A DNA stretch of 64,000 bases from Clostridia bacterium (GCA_017428025.1 JAFRRO010000028.1:3304-67303), one strand, 5' to 3'; shown: positions 27,013 through 44,599, counted from the stretch's first letter. Translations and numbers: made by a program. The notes: generated from the letters alone by a model not told the origin.

Positions 27013-27726
27013 TTATCTGCGCCGTGAGCCCTGCGCGATCGAGAACAGGCGCAGGACGGTGACGAACGAGCCGAGCGCGGCGAGCACATAGGTGAGCGCG
27101 GCGGCGCGCAGCATCTTCTTCGCGCCGGGCAGTTCGTCGTCGGTCAGATACCCGCCGGCGGTCAGCATGTCGAGCCCGCGGCGCGAGGCGTTGAACTCGA
27201 CCGGCAGGGTGACGAGCTGGAACAGCAGCACCGCCACGTACAGCACGACGCCGGTCATTGCGATATAGTAGCCGACGTTGCCCGCGCCCGCGGCAAAGAT
27301 CGAAAGCAGCAAGCCGCCGACCACCAGGAACGGTCCGATCCGGCTGCCGAGATTCGCCGCCGGCAGGATCACGCTTCTCAGCTTCATCGGCGCATAGCCT
27401 TCGTTGTATTGCAGAACGTGCCCGATCTCGTGTGCGGCGACGGCGTAGGCGGAGACGGAATTGGAATGATAGACCGCCTCGGACAGCCCGACGACCTGGC
27501 TTCTCGGATCGAAATGGTCGGTCAGCTCTCCGGCGACCGGCTGCACCGGAAGCGTCAGTCCGTTCTGCCGCAGCAGCTCCTGCGCAAGCTGCGCGCCGTA
27601 GATTCCGCGAAAAGCGGGCGACTGCGCGTACTTGCGGAACACCCGCTGCACGTGCGACTGCGCAACGAGCGAAAGAATCATGATCGCGATTGCGATAAAA
27701 TAATACAGATAACCTTCCATACGCAT
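27013..27726 (-). CDS. YugP-like putative neutral zinc metallopeptidase (membrane)
   Basis: It has the HEIGHVLQ zinc motif and N- and C-terminal TM segments. The start at 27726 or 27720 is uncertain. Confidence 0.8.
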   Translation of the reverse strand: MRMEGYLYYFIAIAIMILSLVAQSHVQRVFRKYAQSPAFRGIYGAQLAQELLRQNGLTLPVQPVAGELTDHFDPRSQVVGLSEAVYHSNSVSAYAVAAHEIGHVLQYNEGYAPMKLRSVILPAANLGSRIGPFLVVGGLLLSIFAAGAGNVGYYIAMTGVVLYVAVLLFQLVTLPVEFNASRRGLDMLTAGGYLTDDELPGAKKMLRAAALTYVLAALGSFVTVLRLFSIAQGSRRR

Positions 27727-27755
27727 ATTATACCGAAATCCTCTTACAAATACCA

Positions 27756-27783
27756 TTGCAAAACGTGAAAAATATGTTATAAT
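27756..27783 (+). promoter_or_regulatory. asnS promoter
   Basis: TTGCAA (27756-27761), a 16-nt spacer, then the extended -10 TGtTATAAT (27775-27783). Confidence 0.7.
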
Positions 27784-27836: not shown

Positions 27837-29219
27837 ATGCAATACTTGAAGCTTAAGGACATCCAGAAGGCGCCGGAATCCTACGTCGGCGCGATCACCG
27901 TCTGCGGTTGGGTACGCACCGCGCGCGAAGGCAAATCGGTCGGCTTTATCGAGCTCAACGACGGCACCTCGTTCCGCCCCGTGCAGATCGTCTATGAGAA
28001 CGACGAACGCAAGCTCGGCAAGGGCATCACGACCGGCTGCGCCATCGTCGTCGACGGCGAACTGGTGCTGACGCCGGACGCGCCGCAGCCGTTTGAGATC
28101 CACGCAAACGCGATCACGATCGAAGGCGAATGCCCCTCGGACTATCCGATGCAGAAGAAGCGCCACACGCTCGAGTATCTGCGCACGATGCAGACGCTCC
28201 GTCCGCGCACGAACACCTTCCTTGCGACGTTCCGCGTGCGCTCGGTCGTGGCGGCGGCGATCCACGAGTTCTTCCAGGACCGCGGCTTCGTCTATGTGCA
28301 CACGCCGATCCTGACGAACGCCGACTGCGAAGGCCGCGGCGAGATGTTCCAGGTCACGACGCTCGATCTCGAAAACCTGCCGCGCACCGAGGACGGCAAG
28401 GTGGACTATTCGCAGGACTTCTTCAAAAAGCCGGTGCATCTTTCCGGTTCCGGTCAGCTGTACGGCGAAGCGTTTGCGCTGGCGTTCCGCGACATCTACA
28501 CCTTCGGTCCGACGTTCCGCGCCGAGTATTCCTTCACCGCGCGCCACGCGAGCGAGTTCTGGATGATTGAGCCGGAGATGGCGTTCTGCGATCTCGAGGG
28601 CGATATGGACGTTGCCGAAGCGATGGTCAAATACATCATCCAGACGGTGCTCGACCGCTGCCCCGCCGAGATGGAATTCTTCAACAAGTTCGTCGACAAG
28701 GGACTCTTTGACCGGCTGCACAACGTGCTGCACAACGAATTCCGCCGCCTGACCTACACCGAGGCGATCGAGATCCTCAAGAATTCCGGCGAGCCGTTCG
28801 AATATCCGGTCGAATGGGGCGTCGATCTGCAGAGCGAGCACGAACGCTATCTGACCGAAAAGGTCTTCGGCAAGCCCGTGTTCCTCACCGACTATCCGAA
28901 GGACATCAAATCGTTCTACATGCGCCAGAACGACGACGGCAAGACCGTCGCGGCGGCGGACCTGCTGGTGCCGGGCGTCGGCGAGATCGTCGGCGGCAGC
29001 CAGCGCGAGGAGCGCTACGACGTGCTCGACGCGCGCTGCAAGGAGCTCGGCATGGACATGCGCGAGTACCAGTGGTTCCTCGACCTCAGAAAGTACGGCG
29101 GCGTCAAGCACGCGGGCTTCGGCCTCGGCTTCGAGCGCATGGTGATGTACCTCACCGGCATGCAGAACATCCGCGACGTCCTGCCCTTCCCTCGCACCGC
29201 CGCAAACCTCGAAATGTAA
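27837..29219 (+). CDS. asnS: Asparagine--tRNA ligase
   Basis: 460 aa. It has an N-terminal OB fold ([23 protein letters not shown]) and the class II motifs FRAE and GFGLGFERM. Confidence 0.93.
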
Positions 29220-29233
29220 ACAACAACGCAAAA

Positions 29234-29265
29234 GCCGCCCGCAGGGGCGGCTTTTCTCGTTTTTT
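29234..29265 (+). terminator. asnS intrinsic terminator
   Basis: GCCGCCC-gcag-GGGCGGC is followed by TTTTCTCGTTTTT. The T-tract overlaps the stop codon (29264-29266) of the last phage-module gene on the opposite strand. Confidence 0.85.
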
Positions 29266-30091
29266 AGGCGGCGGGAAACTGCGCCATCAGCTGCTCGAAC
29301 GCGGCGCGTCCGAGGCTGCTGCGGATCTGCGCATACGACTGCGCGTAGGCGCCTTCGCCGGCATAGAACTGTCTGCGCTGTTCGGGCGAAAGTCGGGACA
29401 GCAGGTTCGCAGCCGTGCGGTAGTCGACGTCCGTACTTTCGGCGGGCTGCGCGCCGGACATCATCGCGTCGATCAGCGGATACCTTCCGTCCTGCGCTTC
29501 ACTCTGCGCGCCTGCACGGCCGCCGCCGGAGCGGTGATACGCGCTGTACAGCGCCTGTGCCGCCGCTGCCGCCTTTTCGCGGGCACGGTTGATCTGCTCC
29601 GCGTTGAATTTGTCGACGTCGATCTTCTGTTCCTGCTGCGCGCGCATCGCGTCATACAGCTGTCCGGCGAGCGTCGATGCGTAATCGCTTTCGAGATCGT
29701 CGACGTCCTGCGCTTCGCTGCGGAACGCGCGGTCCTTGACGTCGGTCACATAGGTGCTCGTGCCCATGCCGCGCGCCAGCGCGTCGGCGTCGAGCTCCGC
29801 GTTCTGCCGCTCGGTCCGCTCTTGCCGCGAGCGGATCGCCTGTTCGTACGCCGGACGCAGCCAGTTCGAGATCGTGTCGCGCAGCACGTCCTCGTCGAGC
29901 GGCGTGAACGACACGGTTTCCGGCAGATACGTCTTGAGCATCTCCGAAAAGATCGATTCGAACGACGGCGCGTCGCTGCCGCTGCCGCCGCCCGATCCGC
30001 CCGTCTGTGTCCGCCCGCTCTGCCTGCGCGTCAGCGGATCCTTGATCGGCGGTGTCAAAAGTCTGATGGGTGGGATTCGTACCATTCTCAT
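29264..30091 (-). CDS. Phage-module hypothetical protein (275 aa; Gly-rich N-terminus, Ala/Gln-rich helical body)
   Basis: Its ATG overlaps the upstream stop (ATGA). No recognisable motif was found. Confidence 0.6.
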   Translation of the reverse strand: MRMVRIPPIRLLTPPIKDPLTRRQSGRTQTGGSGGGSGSDAPSFESIFSEMLKTYLPETVSFTPLDEDVLRDTISNWLRPAYEQAIRSRQERTERQNAELDADALARGMGTSTYVTDVKDRAFRSEAQDVDDLESDYASTLAGQLYDAMRAQQEQKIDVDKFNAEQINRAREKAAAAAQALYSAYHRSGGGRAGAQSEAQDGRYPLIDAMMSGAQPAESTDVDYRTAANLLSRLSPEQRRQFYAGEGAYAQSYAQIRSSLGRAAFEQLMAQFPAA

Positions 30092-30285
30092 TCTCCTTCC
30101 GTAAGTTCGGCAAGTGCCGATTCGAGTTCCGAGAGCTTGCTGTACAGAAGCTCCAGGTTCTGGTTCAGATTGTTTTCGTTCTGAGCGACGCTGCTGTCGT
30201 ATGCGTCCCGATCCTCGTCTTTTTGGGGCATTCTACCGAGATAGATCGGAAACAGCGCCTGCATGCCGGTCGGGATGTATGCCAT
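30088..30285 (-). CDS. Phage-module small protein (65 aa, C-terminal coiled-coil)
   Basis: AAAGGAGG precedes the ATG at 30285. It is coupled to the downstream gene. Confidence 0.55.
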   Translation of the reverse strand: MAYIPTGMQALFPIYLGRMPQKDEDRDAYDSSVAQNENNLNQNLELLYSKLSELESALAELTEGE

Positions 30286-30296
30286 ACGCGCCTCCT

Positions 30297-31727
30297 TTAC
30301 ACCGGACGGCGCTGCACGTCAAAGAGCAGCGACGCCTTCGCGTCCAGACGCATCGGCTGTCCGTTCACGTTCGAGAACGACAGGCGGAACACGCGCCCGA
30401 CGCCGCGCAGCGGGATCTCCGTCACCGAATGCGGCGTATCGGAGAAATGCGCCTGCGTCTGATATGCGCCGCCGTTTGTCAGCACGCGCACCAGCACGTC
30501 CCCCTCGCCGCTTGCGGTCAGCATCAGCAGCGTCTTGTTCGCTTCCTTGTGCCCGAAATCCTGCACCGGCATGTCCCACCACGCCTCGATCCGGTCGCCG
30601 TCGTAGTCGGGACTGTCGTCGAACCGCACCAGCTTGCCCGTCGACGTCAGCGCATACAGCTCGCCGGACAGCGACTGGATATCCGCAAGCAGGAATCCGG
30701 TGCGGAGCATATAGGTCCCGCGCAGAAGGTCGTATTCGATCATCGTGTCCGCGTACGAAACGACGTCGCAGGAGCGAAACGCGAAGTACAGCCGGTCGCC
30801 GCACGCCGCGGATACCGTCCCGTCGAGCTTCGCTTCCTTCAGAAGCGGCAGCAGCGCAGCGGCATTCGCCGGACGGCGCACCGTTTGCCCGTCGTAGCAG
30901 CAAAGCCCGCCGTCGGACAGAAAATACAGCCGGTCCGTGTATCGCACGATCGCCGTATGCACCGGCATCTCGTACGCCGCGTCGATCGCGGTGATGCGGA
31001 AATTCGACGGACGGTCGCCGAGCAGGCGGAACACGTTGTTTCTCGTGAAGATCAGCAGCTGATTCGACAGCGCCGCCAGTCCGGTGATCGGATCGTCGCT
31101 GACGCCGATATCCACAAACCCGCCGGAGACGTTCTCGCTCGCGGGATCCTGCCGCCAGTCGTCGATGCCGCGGTCCGCGCCGGGCGCTTTGCTCCAGTAG
31201 AGGCGGCTCGGCGCAAGCATGTTGCCCGCCGCAAACAGCCGTCCGAAGTACAGTTCCGCGCAGCTGACCGGCACATCGCTGAGCTTTTCCGCCGAGCCGA
31301 ACGGCGTGATTTCGTGCGTCAGCGGGTTGTAGAGGATCGGCTGCCCGTTGCCGTACACGATCAGCAGGCGGTCCCGGCTCTCGATGCGGACCGGCAGAAA
31401 ATCGATCCGATCCGCCGAAAGCTCGTTCGCAAACGTGTGGATCTGCCGCCATTCACGCTGCGCCGAGCGGTAGTAGTACAGCGCATCCCGCGACACGGCG
31501 AGATACCGCACGCCCTGCTCGGTCGGATACAGAAACATGCGCAGCAGCGGCGTCTGTGCGGAAAGGATGCCCGAAGCCGCGCGGGAAAACCCGCCCGCCG
31601 TGCGAAGATCGCCGGAACGCGTGTCCATGTTGCACGCGTCGGGGCTCTGATCCGCGCTCATCAGCGCTTCCGAAAGGTCCATGCGCACGCCGGAGAACGC
31701 GGGCAGCATGCCGTAGGTATATGCCAT
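30297..31727 (-). CDS. Phage-module structural protein of unknown role (476 aa, repetitive beta-rich pattern)
   Basis: GGAGGG precedes the ATG. Its size and position after the connector-like gene suggest a neck or tail-hub component, but this is an inference only. Confidence 0.6.
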   Translation of the reverse strand: MAYTYGMLPAFSGVRMDLSEALMSADQSPDACNMDTRSGDLRTAGGFSRAASGILSAQTPLLRMFLYPTEQGVRYLAVSRDALYYYRSAQREWRQIHTFANELSADRIDFLPVRIESRDRLLIVYGNGQPILYNPLTHEITPFGSAEKLSDVPVSCAELYFGRLFAAGNMLAPSRLYWSKAPGADRGIDDWRQDPASENVSGGFVDIGVSDDPITGLAALSNQLLIFTRNNVFRLLGDRPSNFRITAIDAAYEMPVHTAIVRYTDRLYFLSDGGLCCYDGQTVRRPANAAALLPLLKEAKLDGTVSAACGDRLYFAFRSCDVVSYADTMIEYDLLRGTYMLRTGFLLADIQSLSGELYALTSTGKLVRFDDSPDYDGDRIEAWWDMPVQDFGHKEANKTLLMLTASGEGDVLVRVLTNGGAYQTQAHFSDTPHSVTEIPLRGVGRVFRLSFSNVNGQPMRLDAKASLLFDVQRRPV

Positions 31728-31739
31728 ACGCGTCCCTCC

Positions 31740-32294
31740 TCAATACCGGTTCAGGATCGCATAGCCCGCGGGCTCGTCCATGTCCATCCGGAGTCTGCGC
31801 TTGCGCCGTTCGTACAGCGCCATGACCGTGTTCGCGTGGTTCAGTCCCTGCGCGTCGTTGTGCATCTCGAACCGCGCCACCATGTACAGCACGATCAGCG
31901 GATGGCAGGCGGACGGCAGCTCCGGCACGTCGGTCGGCTGCGACAGCGCGTTCGGCAGATACCGGTAGACCACGTGGACCGGACCGTCCTGTACGCCCTT
32001 CAGATGCAGCATCATAGTATTCGGTCCGTAATAGAACGGCATGCGCAGTCCGCCGCGCTCCACGCCGAGCACCTTGGAAACGGTGCGCGGCAGCGTCGCA
32101 AGATCGATCGTCCCGTTTGCGATCGCCGCCGGATCGCGCCGCCACGGGCGCAGGGATCTCGTGAGATCGTCGATCGCGTCGTTCGCAAAGCCGGTCAGCT
32201 TCTCCCGCCACAGCGGCAGCGCCGCCGTGTCCGACGGATGCTCGAGCTCGGCAAGCGCCAGATTGATCAGTTCCGTGAGCGTCATGCCGATCAC
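31740..32294 (-). CDS. Putative head-tail connector/adaptor protein (184 aa)
   Basis: It sits after the capsid gene. The N-terminal helix (LTELINLALAELEH) resembles gp6-type connectors. The start is GTG at 32294 or ATG at 32285. Confidence 0.5.
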   Translation of the reverse strand: MIGMTLTELINLALAELEHPSDTAALPLWREKLTGFANDAIDDLTRSLRPWRRDPAAIANGTIDLATLPRTVSKVLGVERGGLRMPFYYGPNTMMLHLKGVQDGPVHVVYRYLPNALSQPTDVPELPSACHPLIVLYMVARFEMHNDAQGLNHANTVMALYERRKRRLRMDMDEPAGYAILNRY

Positions 32295-32545
32295 CCGATC
32301 TTTCTGCCGCCGACGTCCCTGTACGCCGAGACCATGCGCGCGCCTTCCTGCAGCGCGGCGCGGCTTTCGCGGATCACCGCCGCGATCCTTTTGGGCACCT
32401 CCACGACCTTATCCGTCGGAATCCGGAAGGCGACGCCGTTGACCGCCCCTTCCAGGAACGGACCGACGGACTCGCTCGGCAGGTAGATCGAAACGGTCGG
32501 TTCCTTCTGTTCGTTTACATTCGTTTTCTTGCTTTCTTCCTTCAT
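32291..32545 (-). CDS. Phage-module small protein (84 aa)
   Basis: It has a good SD (GGAGAAAGGAGAA) and lies directly downstream of the capsid gene. Confidence 0.55.
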   Translation of the reverse strand: MKEESKKTNVNEQKEPTVSIYLPSESVGPFLEGAVNGVAFRIPTDKVVEVPKRIAAVIRESRAALQEGARMVSAYRDVGGRKIG

Positions 32546-32626
32546 GCGGTTTCTCCTTTCTCCTTGCGTCGTCGGCGCAACCCGTCGGGCCGCCCGTACC
32601 GGCGGCCCGTATCGTCCTTTCGGCCC

Positions 32627-33823
32627 TTACTCGCTGACGCCGTGCTCGATGCGCACGATCCAGAGCGGGTTCAGAACCTTTGCCGCGTATGCCGCGACCT
32701 TCGCGCCGACCGTCGAACGCTGGTTGAGCGGATCTGCGCTGCCTTCGGAGCCGCAGGGCTTGATGATCGTCTCGATCGTGCCGGAGCCGTCGATGTCGAT
32801 GACGCCGTACGCGTCCGCGCCGAACACCAGCGTTGCGTGGACGTCCGCCTGCTTGTGCGTGCCGGATTCCTCGCCTGCGTCGGTCGTGTAGACCGGATCG
32901 TTGATGCGATACGTGATCGCCGTGTCGATCGTGAGGACGTTGGTCTCCGCGTTGTACGCCGTGATCTCGTATTCGGAACCGTTGATCGTGATGACGTTGC
33001 CCGCAACCAGATACGCCTTTTCACGGTCGCTCGGGACGGTCTTGAGCTCGATGCTGTTCGTATTCGTGCCCGCCGTCTTGGCGCGGTTGTAGAAGGACTG
33101 GCGATAGACCTTCGCCTCGGTCGCTTCGACGAATACGACGCCGAACAGACGCCCGATCTCGCCGGAATAGATCTGCTCCGCATTGCTGTACTTGGAAACA
33201 TCCTGCCAGAGCGGATCGTTCTGCAGATCGTAGGTCGCGTCGGGCGAGCAGATGCAGACGAAGTGCGGACGGCGCACGCTGCCGTCTGACGCGGTGTTGA
33301 ACATGCGCGCCTTGTTCTTCTTGAGCGTGCGGACCGCCTTGCGGATCTCGGTCACGGTCAGAACGTCTTCGGAGCCGATTTCGCTGCGGTCCTCCTTGCC
33401 GTTCGCGTACTGCACGTTGGTCGTCGCGCACATCGCGTCGCGCGTTACCCACTCGATGACGGTGCCGAGCTGTTCGCCCAGAAGCTCCGCGGAGTCGGCG
33501 ATCACCTCGTCGTATGCGGTCATGTCGAGCAGATCGGAGATCTCGACGTACGCGCCGTACTGCGCGACCTCGGCTTCGACCTTGGACTGCGAAAGCACCT
33601 GTCCCGCGGGCGTGATGCCCTCCTCGAGCGTCAGGCTCGCGACGTCGGGCGTGAACAGATCGTACTTGCGGAACTCCACGCGCTTGCCGCCGTGACGCGG
33701 AATGCTGCGTTTCTGTCCGAACTCTGCGTGCACGAGCCGCGTCTTGGCGGTTTCGAGCAGCTTCTTGTCATAGAATTGCTTATTGAAATAAGCGGTGTTG
33801 GCTGTGTTGATCGTCGTGTTCAT
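32627..33823 (-). CDS. Major capsid protein, N4-gp56 family
   Basis: YFNKQFYDKKLLETAKTRLVHAEFGQKRSIPRHGGKRVEFRKY...LEEGITPAG...QYGAYVEISD matches the N-terminal signature of this family as I recall it. The SD is AAAGGAGA. Confidence 0.8.
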   Translation of the reverse strand: MNTTINTANTAYFNKQFYDKKLLETAKTRLVHAEFGQKRSIPRHGGKRVEFRKYDLFTPDVASLTLEEGITPAGQVLSQSKVEAEVAQYGAYVEISDLLDMTAYDEVIADSAELLGEQLGTVIEWVTRDAMCATTNVQYANGKEDRSEIGSEDVLTVTEIRKAVRTLKKNKARMFNTASDGSVRRPHFVCICSPDATYDLQNDPLWQDVSKYSNAEQIYSGEIGRLFGVVFVEATEAKVYRQSFYNRAKTAGTNTNSIELKTVPSDREKAYLVAGNVITINGSEYEITAYNAETNVLTIDTAITYRINDPVYTTDAGEESGTHKQADVHATLVFGADAYGVIDIDGSGTIETIIKPCGSEGSADPLNQRSTVGAKVAAYAAKVLNPLWIVRIEHGVSE

Positions 33824-33841
33824 GAATTCGATTCTCCTTTC

Positions 33842-34261
33842 TCAGATGTGGACGCGTCTGCCGTTTCTTGCGGCGTTGCGGTACTGCTGTTCGAGCGCGC
33901 GGAACGATTCGCCGGACATCGCCATGTAGTTCGGCGTCGCCGAGACGGCGCGGTCGGTGCGCTGGCTTTTCGGCAGGGCCCTCTGCGCCTGCATCTTTTC
34001 GCCGAGATGCGCCTTTGCGTTCTGTTCGGCTTCCTCCGCACGGCGCTCCGCCGCATAGATGCGGACGGCCGCCTTCGGTTCGAACTCCCTGAGAAGCTCC
34101 GCAAACGCGCGGTCCTTCACGGCTGCCGCGAGATCAAAGCCCCCCGGCAGCGCGCCTTCGCGCTCCATTTCGACCAGTGCGTTCGCCGCTTCGACAAAGG
34201 GATTTTCCTCCCGTTCGACCGGTTCCGGCGCGGTCTCTGCCTGTTGTTTTCTGAAGATCAT
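33842..34261 (-). CDS. Putative scaffolding protein (139 aa, acidic/helical)
   Basis: It lies between the portal and capsid genes. Its ATG at 34261 overlaps the portal stop (ATGA), and the sequence is Ala/Glu-rich. Confidence 0.5.
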   Translation of the reverse strand: MIFRKQQAETAPEPVEREENPFVEAANALVEMEREGALPGGFDLAAAVKDRAFAELLREFEPKAAVRIYAAERRAEEAEQNAKAHLGEKMQAQRALPKSQRTDRAVSATPNYMAMSGESFRALEQQYRNAARNGRRVHI

Positions 34262-35877
34262 GTGTTGCCTCCAAACCATTTGTTTTTCTTTTTCTGCTGC
34301 GGGAACAGCGGTTCCGCCGCCGCTTCCGCTTCCCGGATGTGCTTCAGCACCTGCTCCTTGCCCTCAAAGACCATCAGCTCGATCGCCTGTTCGCGGTCGA
34401 CCGCGCCCATGGAAAGCAGCTTGAGCATCAGCTCGTTCTGTGCGTCCGAGGCGAAACGGCTGCGCTTGACCGCCTTGATCGAGATCGCAAACTCGATCGG
34501 CAGCTCCACGCCGCCCGGCGCGGTCCGGTTCATCAGCTCGCTGTCGAAGAGTACCTCCTTCGGCTGCCCGTCGACGGTGATCGTGACCGGACGGAGGAAG
34601 CAGTTGAACTCGCGCTCGGTCTCGATCTCCATGCGCACCGCCTGACGGAACGCCTCGTGCATCTGCTCGGTCGCCATGCGGGCGCGCTTGGTGCTCATCT
34701 CCTGCAGCGCTTCGATCGCGCGCGCCGCGGTCACGCCGCTTGTGACGTTTCCGCGCGAGCTTTCGTTGGCGCCGCTCTCCTCTTTGATGTCCTCGCGGAT
34801 CGCGCGGATATAGGAGAGCAGATAGTTCGGCAGCGGCGGCGTGGAAAACCACGTCACGCCGTTGAGGCTCTCGCCGGTGTGCACGTCCTTGGACCAGTCG
34901 CGAAGATCGTCCGGATCGAAGCCGGACGCGTCGGTAACCAGCAGCTTGTTGCGCGAGGCGAGCAGAGCGTTTTTCAGCACGAGTTGATCGAGCTTGTCCG
35001 CGTAGCGCTGCTGCGTGCCGAACAGATCGATGATCCCGAAGCCGAGGGCGCTTCCCTTACGCGGGTAGAGCGTCGTCAGTACGAACGGGTACTGACCGTG
35101 TGCAAAATAGCCCTCCGGCTTCACGTCGCGGCTGTCCTCGAGCACCGTCCCGCCCGAGAGGATCGCCATGTGTACGCGATACGTCTCGGTCTTCGCGTCG
35201 AACTCGCGCCACCAGTATTCGAGCAGCAGGCGCGCTTCCTTCGGATCGGGCGAGAGGATCTCGTCGGTCATCAGCTCCGCCGCGTCAACGGGTTGTTCGT
35301 CGATCCGCGCGGCAGTGTCGGGATAGTGCGCTTCGATCCACTCCTTCGAGCGCAGCGCCAGCTTAAAGACCGCACGCCCGTCCTGCAGGTCGGTCACCAT
35401 CGGATCGAACAGGATGTTGCGGATGTCGACGCGCCTCAGGTATGCGCCGCCGAGCCCGCCGTTCTGCGCGCCGTCGTAGCCGACCTCCTGCACGCAGTAG
35501 CCGCCGACCAGCAGATCGTGGATCAGCATGCGGTACTCCACGGGATAGGACGCCGCATCGTGGTTGCGCCGCACGACCGCCTCCACCACGCGGGCGATGA
35601 AGACGTCGGACGCGTTTTCGGGCGTGATGACCGCTTCCGGCACCTGGTCCATCAGATCCGCGGTGATGTTCTCGATCGTCGACTGCAGGATCGGCGTCAC
35701 GGGACGCGGCTCGTTCGGATCGGTCACCGGCACGTCGTACCAGTGCTCGCCGCGATACATGCGCTCGTTGTGCTCCTGCCGCCGCCATTCTCCGGCATAG
35801 GCGTTGCGGAACTCGTTGAACAGCGTCATCGCCCGCTCCGCCAGCTGCCGCTTCGTATCGGATTTTCTGTAATTCAT
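34258..35877 (-). CDS. Phage portal protein
   Basis: 539 aa, immediately downstream of TerL. The N-terminal pattern (ERMYRGEHW...TPILQSTIENITADL) is typical of portal proteins. Confidence 0.75.
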   Translation of the reverse strand: MNYRKSDTKRQLAERAMTLFNEFRNAYAGEWRRQEHNERMYRGEHWYDVPVTDPNEPRPVTPILQSTIENITADLMDQVPEAVITPENASDVFIARVVEAVVRRNHDAASYPVEYRMLIHDLLVGGYCVQEVGYDGAQNGGLGGAYLRRVDIRNILFDPMVTDLQDGRAVFKLALRSKEWIEAHYPDTAARIDEQPVDAAELMTDEILSPDPKEARLLLEYWWREFDAKTETYRVHMAILSGGTVLEDSRDVKPEGYFAHGQYPFVLTTLYPRKGSALGFGIIDLFGTQQRYADKLDQLVLKNALLASRNKLLVTDASGFDPDDLRDWSKDVHTGESLNGVTWFSTPPLPNYLLSYIRAIREDIKEESGANESSRGNVTSGVTAARAIEALQEMSTKRARMATEQMHEAFRQAVRMEIETEREFNCFLRPVTITVDGQPKEVLFDSELMNRTAPGGVELPIEFAISIKAVKRSRFASDAQNELMLKLLSMGAVDREQAIELMVFEGKEQVLKHIREAEAAAEPLFPQQKKKNKWFGGNT

Positions 35878-35901
35878 ATCGTTTTCCTTTCCTTTTTCGT
35901 G

Positions 35902-37233
35902 CTATATCCCGCAGAATCCCGTCAAAGCCGGCTTCGCGGTCGAAAGCGGGTCATAGCGTCTTGCCGGGGTTTGCGGCTTCGGTTCGTTCGCCCGCGGGCG
36001 GGACATCAGCCCGTATCGCAGCGCTTCCGGCGCGTGGTCCTCGCAGGCGTCGGAGACGTCCTCCGGAACGTGCGCGTCGTAGGTCAGCGCGGGCAGGGTG
36101 CGGATGAGATTGCCGCAGTTCTCGAAGATCAGCAGATTCGGCGCGCCGTCCTCCCGGACCGCGAGATTTTCGCGCACGCGCTGCCAGCCCGGGATGCGCG
36201 CATGGTCCGCCGGAATCAGCGGCACGCCGTTTTTCGCGAACACCTCCGCGATGCAGGTCCCCTCCGCGCCCTTCAGCCCGCGCTGCTGCCACGCGTCCGG
36301 CGAAGCGACGGTGTAGGCGATGCGCTCGCCCGCCGAAAGCGTGCGCACCCGCTTTGCGATCTCGCTCGACAGCGTCTTACGAAGATACAGTTCCCGGTAC
36401 ACATACAGCCTGCCTTCCGGCGCCACCGCGAACCAGAGCACGCAGCACGGATCGTTGTAGCCCCAATCCATTGCGCGAAAGCGCTTCCACTCCTTCGGGA
36501 GTTCCGTTGGCTTCACGACGTGTATGCTGCGGTCGAATTCCTGAAAATACTGTCCCTCGAGCACATCCCAGTTGCCGTCGAGATATGCCTTGCGCAGATG
36601 TTCGGGAAGGTTTCGGAGCGTTTCGAGGTACTGCGGGTTCCGGGCGAGCAGAACCGGATTGTCCGTCACCCTCGCCGGAATGAACACATAGTCCTCCGCG
36701 CGCTCGCTGTTGCGGTAGTTCCGGTCGATGAACAGGCGCTTCACCCACGCGTGTCCCACCCCGCCGGGGTTGCAGGTGTAGTACATCCGCGGAGAGAAAT
36801 CGCTGCGCACCGAGCGGTTGCAGGTCGTCAGAAACTGCATCTGCGATTCGGTGAAATGCGTCGCCTCCTCGAGTCCGACGACGTCGTATTCCTGTCCCTG
36901 ATACTGGAACACATCGGCTTCGCGGTCGCAGTAACCGAGCTTGATGCGGCTGCCGTTCGGAAAGAGGAAGGCGCGCTGCGTGCTTTGGTAGTCGACCGCG
37001 CCGTACAGTTCCTTCTGCAGCGGCAGAACGTGGTTCTCATAGAGCTCCGGCAGCGTGCGGCGCAGAAGCAGCAGCCGAAGTCCCGGATAGCGAAAGGCAA
37101 GGAGCACGAACTTTCTGCGCATCGCCCACGACTTGCCGCCGCCGCGCGCGCCGCCGTAGGCAATGTGCCGTGCTTCGGCAAGGAAGAACGCCTCCTGTTT
37201 CGGGTTCGGCGTGCCCGAAAGCGTCAGGATCAT
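35902..37233 (-). CDS. Phage terminase large subunit
   Basis: It has the Walker A motif YGGARGGGKSW near the N-terminus and a C-terminal nuclease-like half. Its ATG overlaps the TerS-like stop. Confidence 0.88.
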   Translation of the reverse strand: MILTLSGTPNPKQEAFFLAEARHIAYGGARGGGKSWAMRRKFVLLAFRYPGLRLLLLRRTLPELYENHVLPLQKELYGAVDYQSTQRAFLFPNGSRIKLGYCDREADVFQYQGQEYDVVGLEEATHFTESQMQFLTTCNRSVRSDFSPRMYYTCNPGGVGHAWVKRLFIDRNYRNSERAEDYVFIPARVTDNPVLLARNPQYLETLRNLPEHLRKAYLDGNWDVLEGQYFQEFDRSIHVVKPTELPKEWKRFRAMDWGYNDPCCVLWFAVAPEGRLYVYRELYLRKTLSSEIAKRVRTLSAGERIAYTVASPDAWQQRGLKGAEGTCIAEVFAKNGVPLIPADHARIPGWQRVRENLAVREDGAPNLLIFENCGNLIRTLPALTYDAHVPEDVSDACEDHAPEALRYGLMSRPRANEPKPQTPARRYDPLSTAKPALTGFCGI

Positions 37234-37544
37234 TTCGCGTACCTTAAAAGCGGCTCGTCCATCGTAACGTGCATCGCCGGCGCGTCGCCGCTCTCCGCCG
37301 AAGTCCCGATCGATCGAAGGACCTCCAGCGCGACCTGATAGGTCAGCTCGCCGAGCAGCGCGCGCTCCTGCGTGTACGCCGCCACCTTGAGAACCGCATC
37401 GAACAGCAGCCGGTCTTTCGCCGTGCGGCGCGGTTCGCGGCAGACTTTGACAAGCGCTTCGGGCGGCAGCTTCGCCGCCCTTGCCAGGCCGAACAGGGTG
37501 TAGGGGATCTGTCTCTCTACCGGTTTTGTCAAGGGATATTTCAA
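37230..37544 (-). CDS. Terminase small subunit-like (gp3-type) protein, probably 5'-truncated
   Basis: IPYTLFGLARAAKLPPEAL resembles the TerS HTH. The only start is a TTG with no SD, and the G+C-rich sequence ends abruptly at about 37545. An in-frame stop lies 6 codons upstream. Confidence 0.5.
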   Translation of the reverse strand: MKYPLTKPVERQIPYTLFGLARAAKLPPEALVKVCREPRRTAKDRLLFDAVLKVAAYTQERALLGELTYQVALEVLRSIGTSAESGDAPAMHVTMDEPLLRYAK

Positions 37545-37671
37545 AAAATAAGTAGATGGTTTTTAGTGATGCCGAATATCTTTTATGACTGGAAGCAGCG
37601 CTTAAGCAACCAAAACGTTCCGATTATTTTGATGTCTTACCGTTATACACTTATTCTGCCGTTGATAAAAA

Positions 37672-37738
37672 TCGGCGATAATCGGCGATAAAAAAGTAGC
37701 GATAATTGAAAATAGCGATATTAAAGTAGCGATAAAAA
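37672..37738. repeat. Five direct GCGATA(A/T) iterons
   Basis: GCGATAA occurs at 37675, 37685, 37699 and 37729, and GCGATAT at 37715. The first two form the tandem TCGGCGATAA x2. The context is AT-rich. Confidence 0.7.
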
Positions 37739-37808
37739 AGAAAGAAAAATCACATCATTCCCGATACAGGTAAAAATTATATAATGTGGAACAGATTTGT
37801 CCTTATTT

Positions 37809-37835
37809 CACTTCATCCCAACTTGGGATGAAGTG
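37809..37835. repeat. Perfect 12-bp palindrome (CACTTCATCCCA-act-TGGGATGAAGTG)
   Basis: Read directly from the sequence. No T-run follows on either strand, so it is not an obvious terminator. Confidence 0.7.
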
Positions 37836-37927
37836 TCTCCGGAAAACATCCGGATATGATTAACACATAAGAAATCGTATGCGTTTCAGTTATTTAAAGT
37901 TAACATATATAAGGAAACTTTGAATCC

Positions 37928-38101
37928 AACGGATGAAATGTCGGGTATGAAGGGCAGAAAAGCGATTGCCGAAAATCCCAGTAAATATGCAAAAAGTGCC
38001 TAATTATCTGGGTTTTTGGCGTTTTTCATTTGGTTCAATCTGTTCAAAAAACCATAGAAATACACTCGTTTATGATCAGAGTGTTGTCAAAAATGTTGTC
38101 A
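37928..38101 (+). repeat. Island repeat, copy 1 (174 bp)
   Basis: By hand alignment it is roughly 85 percent identical to 44600-44773. The last 35 nt (38067-38101) are identical and contain the tandem TGTTGTCA-aaaa-TGTTGTCA. Confidence 0.8.
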
Positions 38102-38187
38102 AAATTTGCCTTCAAACATCCTGTTTCGCCCTCTTGATTGTTTGCAAAACAGCGAATCTCATTTAACCAACATTTTTGTCGAATCTA

Positions 38188-38216
38188 TTGACATGTAGGT
38201 TATGACGAATTATACT
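38188..38216 (+). promoter_or_regulatory. Consensus-like promoter
   Basis: TTGACA (38188-38193), a 17-nt spacer, then TATACT (38211-38216). It lies upstream of the 38236 gene. Confidence 0.65.
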
Positions 38217-38235
38217 ATTCGTGGAGGAAGATGAT

Positions 38236-38532
38236 ATGTCTGCTGTTGATGAATTGATACTCGAAGAAGCGGAACGGCTTAAACGGATTCGCACGGCAAA
38301 GCTGCGTGATTTTGACATGCTTCCAAAAGGAAGCATCCGTAAAAAGAGGATCAACGGTCGTGAGTATCATTATCTTCAGTGGCGAGACGGGAAACGTATA
38401 CGGTGCAAGTACATTCCGGCGGATGAACTGGAAGCTGTTTCCAACCGCATCGATCGCCGCAACAATCTGAAAAACGAGATTGCAGCGATCAACGCCGATC
38501 TATCAAAATTGCAAAGGATCATAAAAGCATGA
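38236..38532 (+). CDS. Hypothetical small protein (98 aa) of mobile-element type
   Basis: GGAGGA lies 6 nt upstream of the ATG at 38236. The pattern GSIRKKRINGREYHYLQWRDGKRIRCKYI followed by a coiled coil recurs in element-borne small proteins as I recall, but I cannot name the family. Confidence 0.6.
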   Translation: MSAVDELILEEAERLKRIRTAKLRDFDMLPKGSIRKKRINGREYHYLQWRDGKRIRCKYIPADELEAVSNRIDRRNNLKNEIAAINADLSKLQRIIKA

Positions 38533-38712
38533 CGAGCATTCAACAAAAAGAATTCTTGGATTTTATTACTCTGTTCGTTTTCGTTTTCTATTGCCTTTCG
38601 GTTCTCGTTGTCAGACTCCGCAATCCATATGAACGATCGATTCGTCCACGACATTGATGATCAGCGTTTTATGCATCCAGGGTATCAGAGAAAGAAGAAC
38701 ACATTCTAAACT

Positions 38713-38992
38713 CTTTATCCAGCTCAACGGCGGCACCATCTCCATCAACAGCAAAGATGACGGCATCAACGCCGCCCAGAAGTCCAGCGCGTACCGGGCG
38801 AAGGCGGAGATCAACGGCGGCGACATCACCGTGGTCATGGCCTCCGGTGATACGGACGCTATCGACTCCAACGGCGACCTCATTATCAACGGCGGCACCA
38901 TCATCGTCAACGGCCAGCAGATCAACTATATCCCCAACCAGATGATGGGCGGCGGTCGAGGCGGCATGGGCGGCTGGGGCAGGCGCGGTTAA
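38713..38992 (+). pseudogene. C-terminal fragment of a carbohydrate-binding-domain (parallel-beta-repeat) secreted protein
   Basis: Only the final repeats are present (LNGGTISINSKDDGINAA..INGGDITV..INGGTIIVNG). There is no signal peptide or N-terminal body. It is a G+C-rich patch inside the AT-richer island. Confidence 0.55.
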
Positions 38993-39008
38993 CAAACATT
39001 TAAAAAAC

Positions 39009-39356
39009 GTGCTTACTGTAGAAAAGCTGAAAGCCTTTGGCGCGAATACGGCGGAGGGCGTCGCGCGCTGCGTCAATAACGAGGCGTTTTATCTGCGCAT
39101 GGTGAGTAAGGCTATGTCAGATGCCAATTATGGAAAACTCGAGGCGGCGATCCATGTGGGGGCCAAGGCTCCCGCGTTTGAAGCGGCTCATGCCCTGAAA
39201 GGCGTTCTAGGTAATCTTTCCTTGACGCCGATCCTGGAGCCGGTTATGGAGATCACGGAGCTGCTCCGCTCCCGGGCCGACGCAAATGCAAATTATGAAG
39301 CGATCCTCGAAAGGATCCTGATGAAAAAAAGAGAACTGGATCTGCTGGCACAGTAA
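39009..39356 (+). CDS. Hpt (histidine phosphotransfer) domain protein
   Basis: 115 aa with a GTG start. The phospho-His motif is AAHALKGVLGNLSL. Confidence 0.8.
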   Translation: MLTVEKLKAFGANTAEGVARCVNNEAFYLRMVSKAMSDANYGKLEAAIHVGAKAPAFEAAHALKGVLGNLSLTPILEPVMEITELLRSRADANANYEAILERILMKKRELDLLAQ

Positions 39357-39393
39357 TAGAAAGCGTTTTGAAGAAGCAAACACATAAGGACAA

Positions 39394-39442
39394 GGATCGT
39401 GGATGAGAGTTTGGGTATCTCTCCCATCCACGATCCATTTTT
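39394..39442 (+). terminator. Intrinsic terminator after the Hpt gene
   Basis: GGATCGTGGATGAGAG...CTCTCCCATCCACGATCC forms a long stem and is followed by ATTTTT. Confidence 0.8.
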
Positions 39443-39633
39443 ACTGCTTCGGAACCTACACTTCTTCTGTTTTCCGCTCGTTAATACTAATACCTGACTA
39501 AAAGAAGATTTCGCCCTGCCTTTGGCTCACTCCGGTCAACGATGCGTTTAGGCATCCCCTCCCTACGTTCACATTCGGCAGAATGAAAAATGTCTCGGCA
39601 ATCTTGCCTCCCTTTTATCAGGTCTTAATATTA

Positions 39634-40563
39634 TTATTTTTGCCGGTCACGATAGGTTTCAACGATACCGCGCAGCAAATCAAGGTGTTCGTAATTCTTG
39701 AGATAAACGATATTGATTTCTCTCATCATGCTGAAATTTTCGATTGTCAGCAGCGACAGGCGCCCGCGGCGAAGCTCGCTCATACACGCGCTCTTTGCCA
39801 GCACCGAAACACCGAAACCGCCACGGATCAGATCCTTGATCGTTGCAATGCTGTCAATTTCCATGACAATATTGAAATCATTGATGCTGAGATTTTGACT
39901 TTCAAGCGATGCCACGAGCAAATTGCGGGTGTTCGAATTTGGCAGACGCAGGATCAGCTTTTCTTTTTTCAACTGGTCGATTGTGACAGTTCCCTGCCCG
40001 GCAAGCGTGTGATCTGGTGGAACCGCCAACACAAGACAATCGGTGTCCAACATCATGCAACCCAGCGCAGGATCGTTAACCCTACCTTCAACGAATGCGA
40101 AATCCAACTCGAAATTACGCAGCATTGCATATAGATTACTTGATGTGTTCGTGATGATTTTCAGACTTAACTTATCAAATCGGTTCACATACGAAGCAAG
40201 TGCGTTTATAATAGCGCTGCTCTCAGCGGTATGTGTAATACCGACCGTCAATGAATGAATCTGTTCACGCTCGCTCTTTAGCGTTTGTTCAAGATTGCGT
40301 TGAAGAGCGACCATGCTTCTTGCAAAATGAACAACGATCTCGCCCTCGTGTGTGAGTTGAAGGCGATTATGTGAATGATCAAAAATCTGCACGCCGAGTG
40401 AGCTTTCGATCTGCCGAATGTGCTGGCTGACTGCCGGTTGTGACAATGAAAGAACAGCAGCTGCTTTGGTATAGCTGCCCATTTCGACAACCTTCAAGAG
40501 AGTAATAATACGAACATCTATCAATTTTTCTTCCTCCGTAATACTATCATATCCCTTTTTCAT
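39634..40563 (-). CDS. LysR-family transcriptional regulator
   Basis: It has an N-terminal wHTH (GSYTKAAAVLSLSQPAVSQHIRQIE) and a LysR substrate-binding domain of the expected length (309 aa). Confidence 0.9.
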   Translation of the reverse strand: MKKGYDSITEEEKLIDVRIITLLKVVEMGSYTKAAAVLSLSQPAVSQHIRQIESSLGVQIFDHSHNRLQLTHEGEIVVHFARSMVALQRNLEQTLKSEREQIHSLTVGITHTAESSAIINALASYVNRFDKLSLKIITNTSSNLYAMLRNFELDFAFVEGRVNDPALGCMMLDTDCLVLAVPPDHTLAGQGTVTIDQLKKEKLILRLPNSNTRNLLVASLESQNLSINDFNIVMEIDSIATIKDLIRGGFGVSVLAKSACMSELRRGRLSLLTIENFSMMREINIVYLKNYEHLDLLRGIVETYRDRQK

Positions 40564-40632
40564 TTATAATGCAACGAACTGCTGTATACAAATACTCTTA
40601 TCTGCTTTTTGACTTCGCGGTGTCGCTGCGGA

Positions 40633-41004
40633 TTAATCGGGATCTATAAGGTCAAAATCAGAATCTGATAAACGAGAAAAGCAGATATCTACACAACCAT
40701 ACTCTGTCAAACCGGCTTTCAGTTCCAGTGGAATCTCATCTGAATTCAATTCGATCAAAAAGCGGCGAACAGACATACCGTTATAGTCACTTCCGTATAG
40801 AAATCGATAGCGACGAGTATAGCGCGAAAGTAATGAAAAAACGGATTTATCGGGTAGATGGCAATCGGAACAATTGCATCGGTAATACAGATAACGCATT
40901 TTGGCTGAACGGCGGTCGATTCGACGGTATAACAAAGCAAGTACAATTAAGAGACATATGGACACAGCTAAACAGCAAATTGGGAGGGCAAGGGATTTAA
41001 GCAT
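40633..41004 (-). CDS. Hypothetical membrane-anchored protein (123 aa)
   Basis: It has an N-terminal TM segment and a Cys-rich stretch (YYRCNCSDCH). It lies between the MATE and LysR genes. Confidence 0.5.
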   Translation of the reverse strand: MLKSLALPICCLAVSICLLIVLALLYRRIDRRSAKMRYLYYRCNCSDCHLPDKSVFSLLSRYTRRYRFLYGSDYNGMSVRRFLIELNSDEIPLELKAGLTEYGCVDICFSRLSDSDFDLIDPD

Positions 41005-41016
41005 GGGTAAGCTCCT

Positions 41017-42408
41017 TTAGATATATGATAGGGGAACTTGAGCATAGGCGGCGGCAAGGCGTTTGCGAATAAATGCTGTATACATTACATTGGCGACGAC
41101 GCAGCATATTAAGTCGGCAATTGGCGTAGCCATAACGATACCGTAGACAGGTAGCATAAGGCTGATAATAAACATCAGCGGAATATCAACAATGCCCTTT
41201 CGAAGAATTGCAAGCAGGAAAGATTTTCCTCCGTCGCCTGTCGCTTGGAAGAACGAAATCAACACATATGCGCTGGCAGAGAATGGGCCGCCAATGCAAA
41301 GAATTCGCAGAAATATGATGCCGAATTCAAGTGATACAGACTCCGAATGAATAAAAATCCCAATCAAAGGTCTTGCAAACAGTAAACTGACGATCATGCA
41401 TAGCAAGGCGGTTACAACCGCTATGAAATGTGAAGTGCGCACACAATCTCGCATTCGGTTAATATTCTTGGAGGCATAGTTATAGCCGATCAGAGGCAGA
41501 GAACCCTGGGCAATACCGCGCACAATGCAGTGCGCCAGCATATTGACCTTTTTAGCGACACCGATGCCTGTTTGCGCCGAGAGCCCAGACAAGGACATTA
41601 ACTTGTCAAGGATCGCATAGGAAATGTTTTCAAACAACGTCATGATGAATGCCGGTAATCCAGCCGTCAGGATCCTTACGGGGATTCTGTTGGACAGCAT
41701 TGCCTTTGTTGGAACAAATCTGAGAACTGTATGCTTTCGGATGCAGATCAATATAATTATGAAATATAGCAACGATATCATGTTTGCAAGCGTCGTAGCG
41801 ATCGCGGCGCCGAGTGCCTCATTCCCCGCTGGCAGAAGAACGAACATAAACAGCGGATCAAAAACAATATTCAACACACCGCCGAGCGCAATTCCAACAG
41901 CGGCATGAACGGACCGCCCTTCGGAACGAATCAAGTGGGACAGCAACACGCCGGTTGCCGTTACGATCCCGCCGGCAACAACCGTACACAGCATATAAGC
42001 GACAGCGTTGTTGTGTACCGCAGGATTGGTTCCGCCGAGAAGATCGACAAACCAATCGATGCTGATCCAAGCAAAGGCAGAGTAGAACAGTGTCATACCA
42101 ATACAGCCCCACAGGGCGAACGCCGATGCCATATGTGCTTGAGTACGGTTTTCCGCGCCGAGTGCTCTGGCTATAACGCTTGCGCCGCCGACGCCGAACA
42201 AATTTGAGATTGCCGAAAGGAACATGAAAGATGGCATACATACCGTTACAGCAGTCATCATAGCATCATTGCCGGTAAGACCAACAAAAAAAGTATCTGC
42301 CATATTATATATGACAAGGATAATCTGCCCAATGACGGTAGGGAAGGCCAGACGAAAGATGGCTTTTGTCACGCTACAGGTTTCAAAAAGCTCTTTTTCG
42401 TTTCGCAT
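41017..42408 (-). CDS. MATE-family efflux transporter
   Basis: I trimmed to the ATG at 42408 (463 aa). It has 12 TM segments and a typical MATE N-terminus (AIFRLAFPTVIGQIILVIYNMADTFFVG). Confidence 0.9.
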   Translation of the reverse strand: MRNEKELFETCSVTKAIFRLAFPTVIGQIILVIYNMADTFFVGLTGNDAMMTAVTVCMPSFMFLSAISNLFGVGGASVIARALGAENRTQAHMASAFALWGCIGMTLFYSAFAWISIDWFVDLLGGTNPAVHNNAVAYMLCTVVAGGIVTATGVLLSHLIRSEGRSVHAAVGIALGGVLNIVFDPLFMFVLLPAGNEALGAAIATTLANMISLLYFIIILICIRKHTVLRFVPTKAMLSNRIPVRILTAGLPAFIMTLFENISYAILDKLMSLSGLSAQTGIGVAKKVNMLAHCIVRGIAQGSLPLIGYNYASKNINRMRDCVRTSHFIAVVTALLCMIVSLLFARPLIGIFIHSESVSLEFGIIFLRILCIGGPFSASAYVLISFFQATGDGGKSFLLAILRKGIVDIPLMFIISLMLPVYGIVMATPIADLICCVVANVMYTAFIRKRLAAAYAQVPLSYI

Positions 42409-42832
42409 TTCGTGCCTTGCCTCCGTGAAGATCTGTTTGTTTTGAGATGTTGCACTTATTGTAATGGGCAGCCCCTGATAATGCAAATCAGGATTCTGAA
42501 GAGCGTCATAAGTTTTTATTATTGAATATGAGAGGAGTTGTCAAGAATACGATAAAAGCAGTAATAATGAATGATTTACCCTATCACAATTCGTAATAGG
42601 CTATAAAGAAAATCAAATACGCGCTGACTACGGCAATAGGTTCCGAGCGGCTGGTCCGATATAACTACTATACATAGGCACGGAGACGCGGCACTATGCG
42701 TTCACGGACCACACAAGAGGATAGCAAAGTAGGCGCGTCGGCAGGAAAGAGACAATACGAATCATCTTGTCCGCAGAAGACACGACGAGCCGGAACGGTG
42801 ATCCCGTTTACGCTTTCCTGCTGTCTCTATTA

Positions 42833-44429: not shown

Positions 44430-44566
44430 CTCCTCATACGCAAATGCCGCCGAACAATTGACGCCGGAAACATATTTCTTTTCGTCGGTCTTCTCCGGCG
44501 ACGCGGCAAAGCCGCGTATACGAACGGACGCTGCGCGCCCGTTCTCGCTGCCCCGGCCGCGGACAT
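44426..44566 (-). pseudogene. Probable relaxase N-terminal segment in a different frame (46-aa ORF)
   Basis: GGGAGG lies 8 nt upstream of the ATG at 44566. MSAAGAARTGAQRPFVYAAL fits the motif-I region (G....Y) of relaxases. It joins the relaxase frame after a 1-nt shift near 44495-44515. Confidence 0.5.
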
Positions 44567-44599
44567 AAAAATGACCTCCCGTAGCGGCGATCCGATTCG

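Follow-up and report, generated by a model that had tools for sequence, protein, structure and literature searches.

The locus described here raises the question of what a compact set of phage packaging and particle genes represents in a bacterial chromosome when genes for integration, replication and lysis are not found beside it. The set occupies positions 29264-37544 on the minus strand of a stretch of 64,000 nucleotides (nt) from a Clostridia bacterium (GCA_017428025.1, JAFRRO010000028.1:3304-67303); this whole stretch is referred to as the window, and positions are counted from its first letter unless another locus is named. A preliminary description, made from the sequence alone, offered two readings, namely a prophage eroded from both sides, or a retained and possibly domesticated capsid module of the kind seen in gene transfer agents (GTAs) or in capsid-forming phage-inducible chromosomal islands (cf-PICIs). 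To our knowledge, GTAs outside the Alphaproteobacteria are barely known, and the first podovirus-like one was reported only in 2024-2026, from Faecalibacterium. On the evidence below we consider it probable (at roughly 0.7) that the region represents the principal operon of a domesticated GTA-like element of podovirus descent, and the counterpart of operon I of FpGTA from Faecalibacterium prausnitzii, a system that consists of a ten-ORF (open reading frame) operon I and an operon II (Nat Commun 2026;17:2046; preprint 2024; PMC12946183).

Gene content and layout of the module

All ten minus-strand ORFs were found where, and in the order in which, the preliminary description had placed them, and the families of the large terminase subunit (TerL), the portal and the major capsid protein (MCP) were confirmed by profile matches. 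Lengths are given in amino acids (aa):

37230-37544, minus strand: terS-like gene, 104 aa, 5'-truncated ('B-type', see below), with a TTG start and no Shine-Dalgarno (SD) sequence; from alignment with relatives
35902-37233, minus strand: TerL, 443 aa; phrog_979 (6e-56), PF03237, PF04466
34258-35877, minus strand: portal of the P22/SU10 type, 539 aa; phrog_156 (2e-49), PF16510 (P22_portal, 2e-24), PF23899 (SU10_portal)
33842-34261, minus strand: scaffold-like protein, 139 aa, from its position between portal and MCP; an alternative start at 34279 gives 145 aa
32627-33823, minus strand: MCP of the N4-gp56 family, 398 aa; TIGR04387 (252.6 bits, cutoff 60, in two stretches), phrog_1357 (8e-69)
32291-32545, minus strand: small protein, 84 aa, at the same position in all colinear loci (71-92 aa); median dN/dS 0.25
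31740-32294, minus strand: head-to-tail adaptor of the SU10 type, 184 aa; PF24175 (SU10_adaptor, 2.3e-11, 45 bits, cutoff 27)
30297-31727, minus strand: predicted tail nozzle (tail hub), 476 aa, a beta-propeller in the structure model and fold search
30088-30285, minus strand: protein of 65 aa with a C-terminal coiled-coil-like segment; 54-92% identity among relatives
29264-30091, minus strand: tenth gene, 275 aa, Ala/Gln/Glu-rich, with the core NAELDADA.SRGMG.STYVTDVK; in all loci, at 208-334 aa

The first gene presumably encodes the small terminase subunit (TerS), given its position and its 4-nt overlap with terL; the protein has no match in Pfam, PHROG, NCBIfam or PDB, and its intact relatives are 123-140 aa long and have a conserved N-terminus, MNK..AIRAYFAACDATRER. 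The fourth, scaffold-like protein, the start of which was picked by the gene calls in related contigs, had no Pfam or NCBIfam match at E <= 0.01, the Prp-protease family included, and none among solved structures. About 80 aa of the MCP (approximately residues 243-330) form a beta-rich, variable insertion, and the AlphaFold2 (AF2) model of the MCP, made from a shallow alignment, reaches a predicted local distance difference test (pLDDT) score of 46 overall and is confident only in this insertion (pLDDT 84-96).

Profile searches and structure prediction had been proposed for the five proteins that follow the MCP, and they placed two of these. The 184-aa protein (181 aa from an alternative ATG at 32285) is the adaptor by its Pfam match. 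The 476-aa protein gave weak PHROG matches and no PDB match in profile searches, and its identification comes from the fold search only: its AF2 model (46 homologues; pLDDT 91.4, predicted template modelling score 0.90) was matched by Foldseek to the tail of Pa223 (9nwi_Y, E 3.3e-24, template modelling score 0.80) and to P22 gp10 (8eap_D, 1.1e-15), with further matches to 8zkk_O, VP1, SU10 and T7 gp12. According to this model the protein is a podovirus tail nozzle of the P22 gp10/T7 gp12 type; a length of 474-479 aa is found also in nearly all listed homologues down to 41% identity. No match was obtained for the other three proteins, neither in families or solved structures for the 84-aa and 65-aa proteins, nor in families or PDB for the 275-aa protein, for which a PHROG scan of 20 homologues yielded no consistent family. 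The 65-aa protein is possibly a tail plug or a partner of the tenth protein, which itself is probably a virion protein. As an adaptor and a nozzle are encoded, the module specifies a head together with the core of a short tail, and the terms 'head-only' and 'tail-less', under which it was first described, have to be abandoned.

The tight packing of the genes was recognized correctly for all junctions except one. Overlaps of 4 nt join terS to terL (of the ATGA/GTGA type), portal to scaffold-like gene (with the 139-aa start at 34261), the 84-aa gene to the adaptor gene and the 65-aa gene to the 275-aa gene; gaps of 24 nt (terL-portal), 18 nt (scaffold-MCP), 12 nt (adaptor-nozzle) and 11 nt (nozzle-65-aa gene) separate the others. 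The exception follows the capsid gene:

32546-32626, minus strand: spacer of 81 nt, 3' of the capsid gene; includes GGGCCGCC-ggtac-GGCGGCCC, a hairpin rich in G+C and without T-tract

The hairpin in this spacer might raise the share of capsid mRNA. Most module starts are preceded by SD-like motifs (GGAGG in the case of the scaffold-like gene), as had been reported; the window terS is not among them. At its 3' end the module meets asnS, which is convergent with it (plus strand, 27837-29219), at a common terminator:

29230-29266, no strand assigned: hairpin terminator shared by asnS and the module (hairpin at 29230-29255, terminator-like on both strands)

The final stop codon of the module (29264-29266) lies inside the T-tract of this hairpin, so that the module does end exactly at the asnS terminator. 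At the other end the G+C content, about 0.63 over the module, drops to 0.46-0.50 between about 37.5 and 43 kb.

Elsewhere in the window, about 50 more ORFs (all but the smallest) were scanned against Pfam; no integrase, repressor, replication, fibre, holin or endolysin gene came up, which bears out the earlier claim. The other window ORFs are housekeeping genes next to genes for LysR, MATE and Hpt proteins and a 5'-truncated MobA/VirD2 relaxase (43116-44429). On the asnS side of the module, an ECF-type (extracytoplasmic function) sigma factor gene with a downstream gene for a 503-aa protein (23589-25641) and a Zn_peptidase_2 gene (27013-27756) are kept in all same-species contigs.

Conservation in related genomes

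If the module were an inert prophage remnant, i.e. what is left of the middle of a podophage after erosion at both ends, without present function, fuller versions of it and signs of decay should be met among its relatives. The capsid protein of the window is encoded in identical form on 23 same-species contigs (from rumen metagenomes and two metagenome-assembled genomes, MAGs), and each of the 23 has the same ten genes and never a fuller prophage. The comparison of the site that had been proposed returned, for these same-species contigs, the same short module each time. Capsid homologues at 69-94% identity are numerous, many of them on contigs of at least 100 kb. A scan with one genome per species found a capsid relative encoded in 125 genome stretches, 80 of which were taken for the comparison of loci (denoted by L and a number), and in 52-56 of these 80 species loci all ten genes are colinear. 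The ten-gene set is present on the complete chromosomes OY771363.1 and OY776633.1 as well. In six contexts that were examined the same ten genes are flanked by differing housekeeping genes, and the Pfam-annotated flanks include proC/msrA/argS/serS, His_Phos_2/Peptidase_M15, amylase/rpsB/tsf and cob genes. In the annotated flanks of the window and about eight related loci, no gene for an integrase, a repressor or replication was detected, nor were att-like repeats, an excisionase or a replication initiator beside the module in the annotated loci (10 kb on each side). No near-identical DNA was matched among GenBank phages. The hosts carry their submitters' own labels, for the most part Clostridia or Christensenellales, and also Christensenellaceae, Christensenella sp., Ca. 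Pelethousia and Ca. Aphodomorpha. One MAG, JAZNHI01, has two contigs (L032 and L048) each with a capsid gene of the family, 77% and 74% identical to that of the window, which represent either two copies, two strains or a broken assembly.

The lengths of the genes are conserved to a high degree. The module measures 7.7-8.6 kb across loci, TerL has 443-445 aa in 42 of 51 loci (with outliers of 326 and 586 aa), the adaptor 179-185 aa in 52 loci, and the nozzle 474-479 aa in 51 of 52 (the outlier having 284 aa). Median dN/dS, calculated by the method of Nei and Gojobori (NG86) over 106 species pairs, amounts to 0.15-0.32 for the ten genes (e.g. TerL 0.146 and the tenth gene 0.27), and relaxed selection, for which such a calculation had been suggested as a check, was not seen. 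Compared with the window, other genomes of the species deviate synonymously at 26-33 codons and nonsynonymously at 3-7, and they contain no stops; the view of the ORFs downstream of terS as intact stands. These comparisons indicate that all ten genes are under purifying selection.

The inert remnant can claim the truncated terS of the window, the lack of lysis, fibre, integration and replication genes there, and the existence of temperate phage relatives (see below). Against it speak the presence of the same ten genes, with their lengths kept and dN/dS at 0.15-0.32, in more than 50 species, a conserved promoter (see below) and synteny that follows the clades, the fact that none of the 23 same-species contigs holds a fuller prophage at the site, and the mostly synonymous nature of the within-species changes. 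That random erosion would leave the same ten genes under constraint in more than 50 species is very unlikely, and we regard erosion from both sides, which the preliminary description took as the simple reading, as highly improbable. The variable content, pseudogenes and relaxed selection that mark decaying prophages are not found; the only lesion is the replacement of the terS 5' end, in four species.

The flanks show how the locus has been passed on. The 42 downstream flanks fall into 17 groups and are common within module clades, and eight loci labelled Christensenellaceae have both flanks in common. Window genes 17-24 kb away from the module have their counterparts directly upstream of the module in L015 and L059, with 87-92% amino acid identity, and the module proteins of these two species are far more diverged (41-86%); in related species the module thus stays within the same neighbourhood of about 30 kb. 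This fits a mainly vertical inheritance of the locus with local rearrangement. The window genes concerned are, on the one hand, His_Phos_2 (54773-56143) and Peptidase_M15 (60615-61265), 91-92% identical to genes upstream of the L015 module, and on the other hand PNP (47988-48788) and the gene of a 369-aa protein (56702-57811), 87-89% identical to genes upstream of the L059 module.

Phage relatives and origin

The closest phage relatives are two IMG/VR contigs of about 39-40 kb, L178 and L122 (the latter of 39 kb), the TerL proteins of which are 63-65%, the MCP cores 67-70% and the portals 37-44% identical to those of the module. Since L178 carries an integrase and a repressor, next to an anti-restriction gene, it is taken to be a temperate podophage. 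The MCPs of both (319-330 aa) are without the insertion described above and their nozzle-like protein is bigger; a pair of 68-aa and 248-aa proteins in L178 matches genes 9 and 10. In a neighbour-joining tree without support values, the 60 module TerLs are monophyletic with L122 as sister, whereby some short IMG/VR contigs were put in the module class by similarity, which makes the grouping partly circular. The nearest isolated phages are podoviruses with at most 40% MCP identity, among them Paenibacillus API480 and Bacillus Page; in podoviruses of the API480/Page type the structural module runs on for about 10 kb with tail, fibre and lysis genes. Taken together, the sequences suggest that the module has a single origin, beside temperate podophages of about 40 kb.

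L178/L122 and, more distantly, Page/API480 share with the module the order TerS, TerL, portal, scaffold, MCP, small gene, adaptor and nozzle. The L178/L122-type phages differ from it by their integrase, repressor and anti-restriction gene, by a larger portal and nozzle, by extra large virion proteins (159, 578 and 711 aa), and by having fibre and lysis genes within one packaged genome.

Fibre and lysis genes and the splitting of the cluster

How the particle genes are distributed over the chromosomes bears directly on whether the module could package itself. In 11 loci the scaffold, MCP, small gene, adaptor, nozzle, small gene and tenth gene form one cluster that is followed downstream by a BppU_N fibre gene, two small genes, an NlpC/P60 endolysin gene and a Phage_holin_4_1 gene; these 11 split loci have no TerL or portal gene within at least 4.8 kb upstream and are flanked by housekeeping genes, e.g. 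ksgA and ileS. A block of fibre, endolysin and holin genes stands just upstream of terS in L035 and L039. In L089 (11161-17155), L097 (11235-14080) and L098, unrelated genes over 3-6 kb part the capsid gene from the block of small gene, adaptor and nozzle, and a tenth-gene homologue directly follows the capsid gene. In L179 (MAG GCA_963640685.1) a BppU-like fibre gene (289 aa, 10001-10870) stands alone, with thyA/folA on one side and a pseudouridine synthase gene on the other; no further phage-like gene lies less than 10 kb away. The C-termini of the fibres are highly variable (187-873 aa). A search with a fibre profile against proteins returned mostly split-type lineages and nothing assignable to the species of the window. 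Such a scattering of gene blocks is incompatible with a genome that packages itself, and it is the pattern of GTA-like elements.

The same observation weighs on a second explanation, that of a helper-dependent satellite of the cf-PICI kind, which would make its own capsid, obtain fibres, lysis and induction from a helper of the L178/L122 type, and mainly package itself. The size of the module, 7.7-8.6 kb, is near the 8.4-8.9 kb packaged by FpGTA particles; the exact junctions vary between related hosts, dS is higher in the module than in the flanks, and related temperate podophages live in the same habitats. The splitting of the cluster in some lineages tells against this explanation, as do the lack of integrase, excisionase, replication initiator and att-like repeats beside the module in the annotated loci, the conservation of flanks within clades, and the module's own adaptor and nozzle. 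We consider a satellite quite improbable. Of the domesticated-module alternative in the preliminary description, the GTA-like version therefore agrees with the data (conserved lengths, low dN/dS) and the cf-PICI-like version fails, as integrase and replication genes are missing and tail genes are present.

Promoter, terS and the adjoining islands

In 26 species a conserved promoter with a leader is found upstream of the intact terS (e.g. L003, 6060-6215), just after the terminator of a host gene. It consists of a TTGTGA(A/C)-like box, often repeated (directly or inverted) or palindromic, followed about 35 nt further on by a TGnTATGCT or TACAAT box, 3' of which come the leader CAGCGAAAGGCAGGGAGG and the start codon; no Rfam family was detected at four related loci. 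Genomes of the window's species occur in two forms, namely an A-type, with the conserved promoter and a TerS-like protein of 129-140 aa, and a B-type, to which the window belongs. A-type genomes part from the window sequence at 37518, and the B-type divergence lies at about 37518-37545. The features concerned are:

37505-37545, minus strand: 'B-type' junction; the original 5' end of terS and its promoter have been replaced here
37546-44773, no strand assigned: low-G+C island that bounds the module and is not part of it, with a 6.5-kb insert between direct repeats

The preliminary description had the terS start lost at the drop in G+C content. The truncation is real, but it does not result from erosion: the junction, which is with mobile islands, has the same sequence in the window and in three further loci, L034 (6190-6270), L019 (6230-6310) and L023 (6210-6290), and two unrelated types of low-G+C island lie upstream of it. 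The island of L019 and L023 encodes a Schlafen/AlbA_2 protein, an ECF sigma factor and DUF4367, and is 91-98% identical between the two loci, whereas their modules are only 70-83% identical. A simple recent insertion was considered as the cause of the truncation and rejected, as the junction recurs in four species. The same terS junction next to unrelated islands in four species implies that mobile islands land repeatedly at one spot in terS, and points to entry by site-specific or repeated integration.

In the window, 180-bp direct repeats (37921-38100 and 44594-44773, 88% identical) enclose the 6.5-kb insert, the cargo of which comprises DUF6788, Cthe_2159, Hpt, LysR, MATE and the 5'-truncated relaxase. 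L034 has a single copy of the 180-bp repeat, which resembles an unoccupied site. At the island end by terS, a cluster of short TATCGC(C/T) repeats (37650-37740, minus strand) is reminiscent of iterons or recombinase arm sites.

With the N-terminus of TerS and the promoter swapped for island sequence, the window copy may be impaired: it could be silent, weaker or under a different control. The intact form of terS persists in other genomes of the species, and in the B-type copies the within-species variation is still mostly synonymous.

Proposed function

By analogy with FpGTA and other GTAs, the operon would be switched on from its own promoter in a subpopulation of cells, probably in late stationary phase. 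TerS and TerL would then load small capsids by a headful mechanism with roughly random stretches of host DNA, none of them long enough to hold the entire system; the adaptor and the nozzle, probably together with the 65-aa and 275-aa proteins, would close and arm the portal vertex, and fibre and lysis genes encoded elsewhere would complete and release the particles. Both particle production and DNA transfer are thus ascribed to the module by analogy.

A third explanation accepts domestication and denies the gene-transfer role, the particle serving for PBSX-like killing or being a device for lysis or DNA release without delivery. Several lineages have lysis genes in linkage with the module, the fibre C-termini vary as strongly as described above, and the authors of the FpGTA study leave roles other than gene transfer open for their own particle (PMC12946183). 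Killers of the PBSX or tailocin type, on the other hand, depend on contractile or long tails, none of which is encoded here, and TerS, TerL and portal are retained under strong constraint, which implies that DNA packaging is a selected step. A particle without a role in transfer is in our judgement unlikely.

Several points count against a GTA-like element with the role proposed here. The window terS is without about 30 conserved N-terminal residues, its native promoter and an SD sequence, and begins with TTG; moreover, the 64-kb window holds no fibre, holin or endolysin homologue. In two comparisons the few flank genes that are shared have about half the dS of the module, a difference that makes exchange between lineages, or different codon constraints, possible. 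The dN/dS values are NG86 estimates and the TerL tree is a neighbour-joining tree without support values, and the taxonomy of the carriers follows submitters' labels that have no finer resolution in the NCBI taxonomy. The likeness to FpGTA is one of families, fold and an order deduced from accession numbers. The fourth protein of the window is scaffold-like and has no Prp match, whereas the fourth FpGTA gene product (RCH50850.1) is annotated as a Prp-type cysteine protease (PMC12946183).

Under the GTA-like reading, the module would add a second large group of Clostridia, from gut and rumen, to the carriers of podovirus-like GTAs, with MCP relatives in at least 125 species-representative genomes. 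It would also provide candidate loci for the GTA-like packaging found in Christensenellaceae (QANA01, HGM11616), where fragments of 6.3 kb and 4.1 kb were packaged and no locus was assigned (PMC12946183). Natural variants (intact versus island-disrupted terS, fused versus split blocks, and wild phage relatives) are at hand for studies of which genes are needed, and the particles, if active, would be a common means by which chromosomal genes move through anaerobic gut communities. A more far-reaching proposal, which we advance tentatively and hold to be doubtful as a whole, is that the module is the basis of the Christensenellaceae packaging, that it was domesticated separately from FpGTA (i.e. 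convergently, in two orders of Clostridia), and that the terS 5' end is a landing site for partly defence-like islands that switch off or rewire the particles.

Comparison with known systems

Two hallmarks of GTAs are present in the module. There is a chromosomal cluster of structural genes without replication, integration and lysogeny-control genes of its own (in the window and about eight annotated loci), and this cluster is conserved throughout the lineage, mainly by vertical descent and under purifying selection (with the caveat that module dS is about twice flank dS). The cf-PICIs resemble the module in being compact chromosomal units with their own terminase, portal and capsid genes and without tail fibres; unlike the module, they have an integrase, regulators, a replication module and att sites, and lack tail genes, their tails coming from a helper phage. 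The GTAs of the RcGTA type (Alphaproteobacteria) share with it a domesticated head-tail cluster without replication and integration genes, vertical inheritance under purifying selection, a TerS without recognisable DNA-binding domain, and accessory fibre and lysis loci elsewhere in the genome. They differ in their siphovirus descent, with a long tail, tape measure and HK97-type protease, in the families of their proteins, which are unrelated, and in belonging to a different phylum.

FpGTA is the system of comparison for the main claim. The positions in its operon I are taken from accession numbering, which runs from RCH50853 down to RCH50844: TerS, without a DNA-binding domain, is followed by TerL (RCH50852), portal (RCH50851) and the fourth protein (RCH50850), and positions 5, 8 and 10 are held by an N4-gp56 MCP (RCH50849.1), a nozzle (RCH50846.1, matched to 8eap) and RCH50844.1, the third most abundant protein of the particles (PMC12946183). 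The particles measure about 40 nm and contain 8.4-8.9 kb of host DNA. Operon II encodes a BppU-like fibre, a receptor-binding protein, holin and endolysin, lies about 125 kb away in the one complete genome examined, and was not detectable in 7 of 12 Faecalibacterium strains (PMC12946183). In the search for FpGTA-like loci, the IMG/VR contigs L165/L171 and L126/L176 were considered as FpGTA and set aside, as their G+C content and gene-size layout resemble those of phage-type contigs and not of ten-gene modules.

The claim of the preliminary description that such a module would be new for this lineage holds in that no Christensenellales locus has been described, but the same kind of element has already been published as FpGTA (PMC12946183). 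The two differ in size, 8.3 kb for the module versus 9.6-10.5 kb for FpGTA, and in their hosts, which are MAGs labelled Christensenellales on the one side and Oscillospirales on the other. Unlike FpGTA, some lineages of the module have their head-tail genes joined to the fibre/lysis block, or have TerS-TerL-portal set apart. What they have in common is a set of ten ORFs with the same families at matching positions (the FpGTA order being that of consecutive accessions, without a map), podovirus-type particle genes with an N4-gp56 MCP and a nozzle of the P22 gp10 (8eap) fold, and a chromosomal location that is kept across the host clade, with no integration or replication genes reported. The separate fibre/holin/endolysin block of FpGTA, which has no counterpart in the 64-kb window, resembles the block that adjoins the module in some of its relatives.

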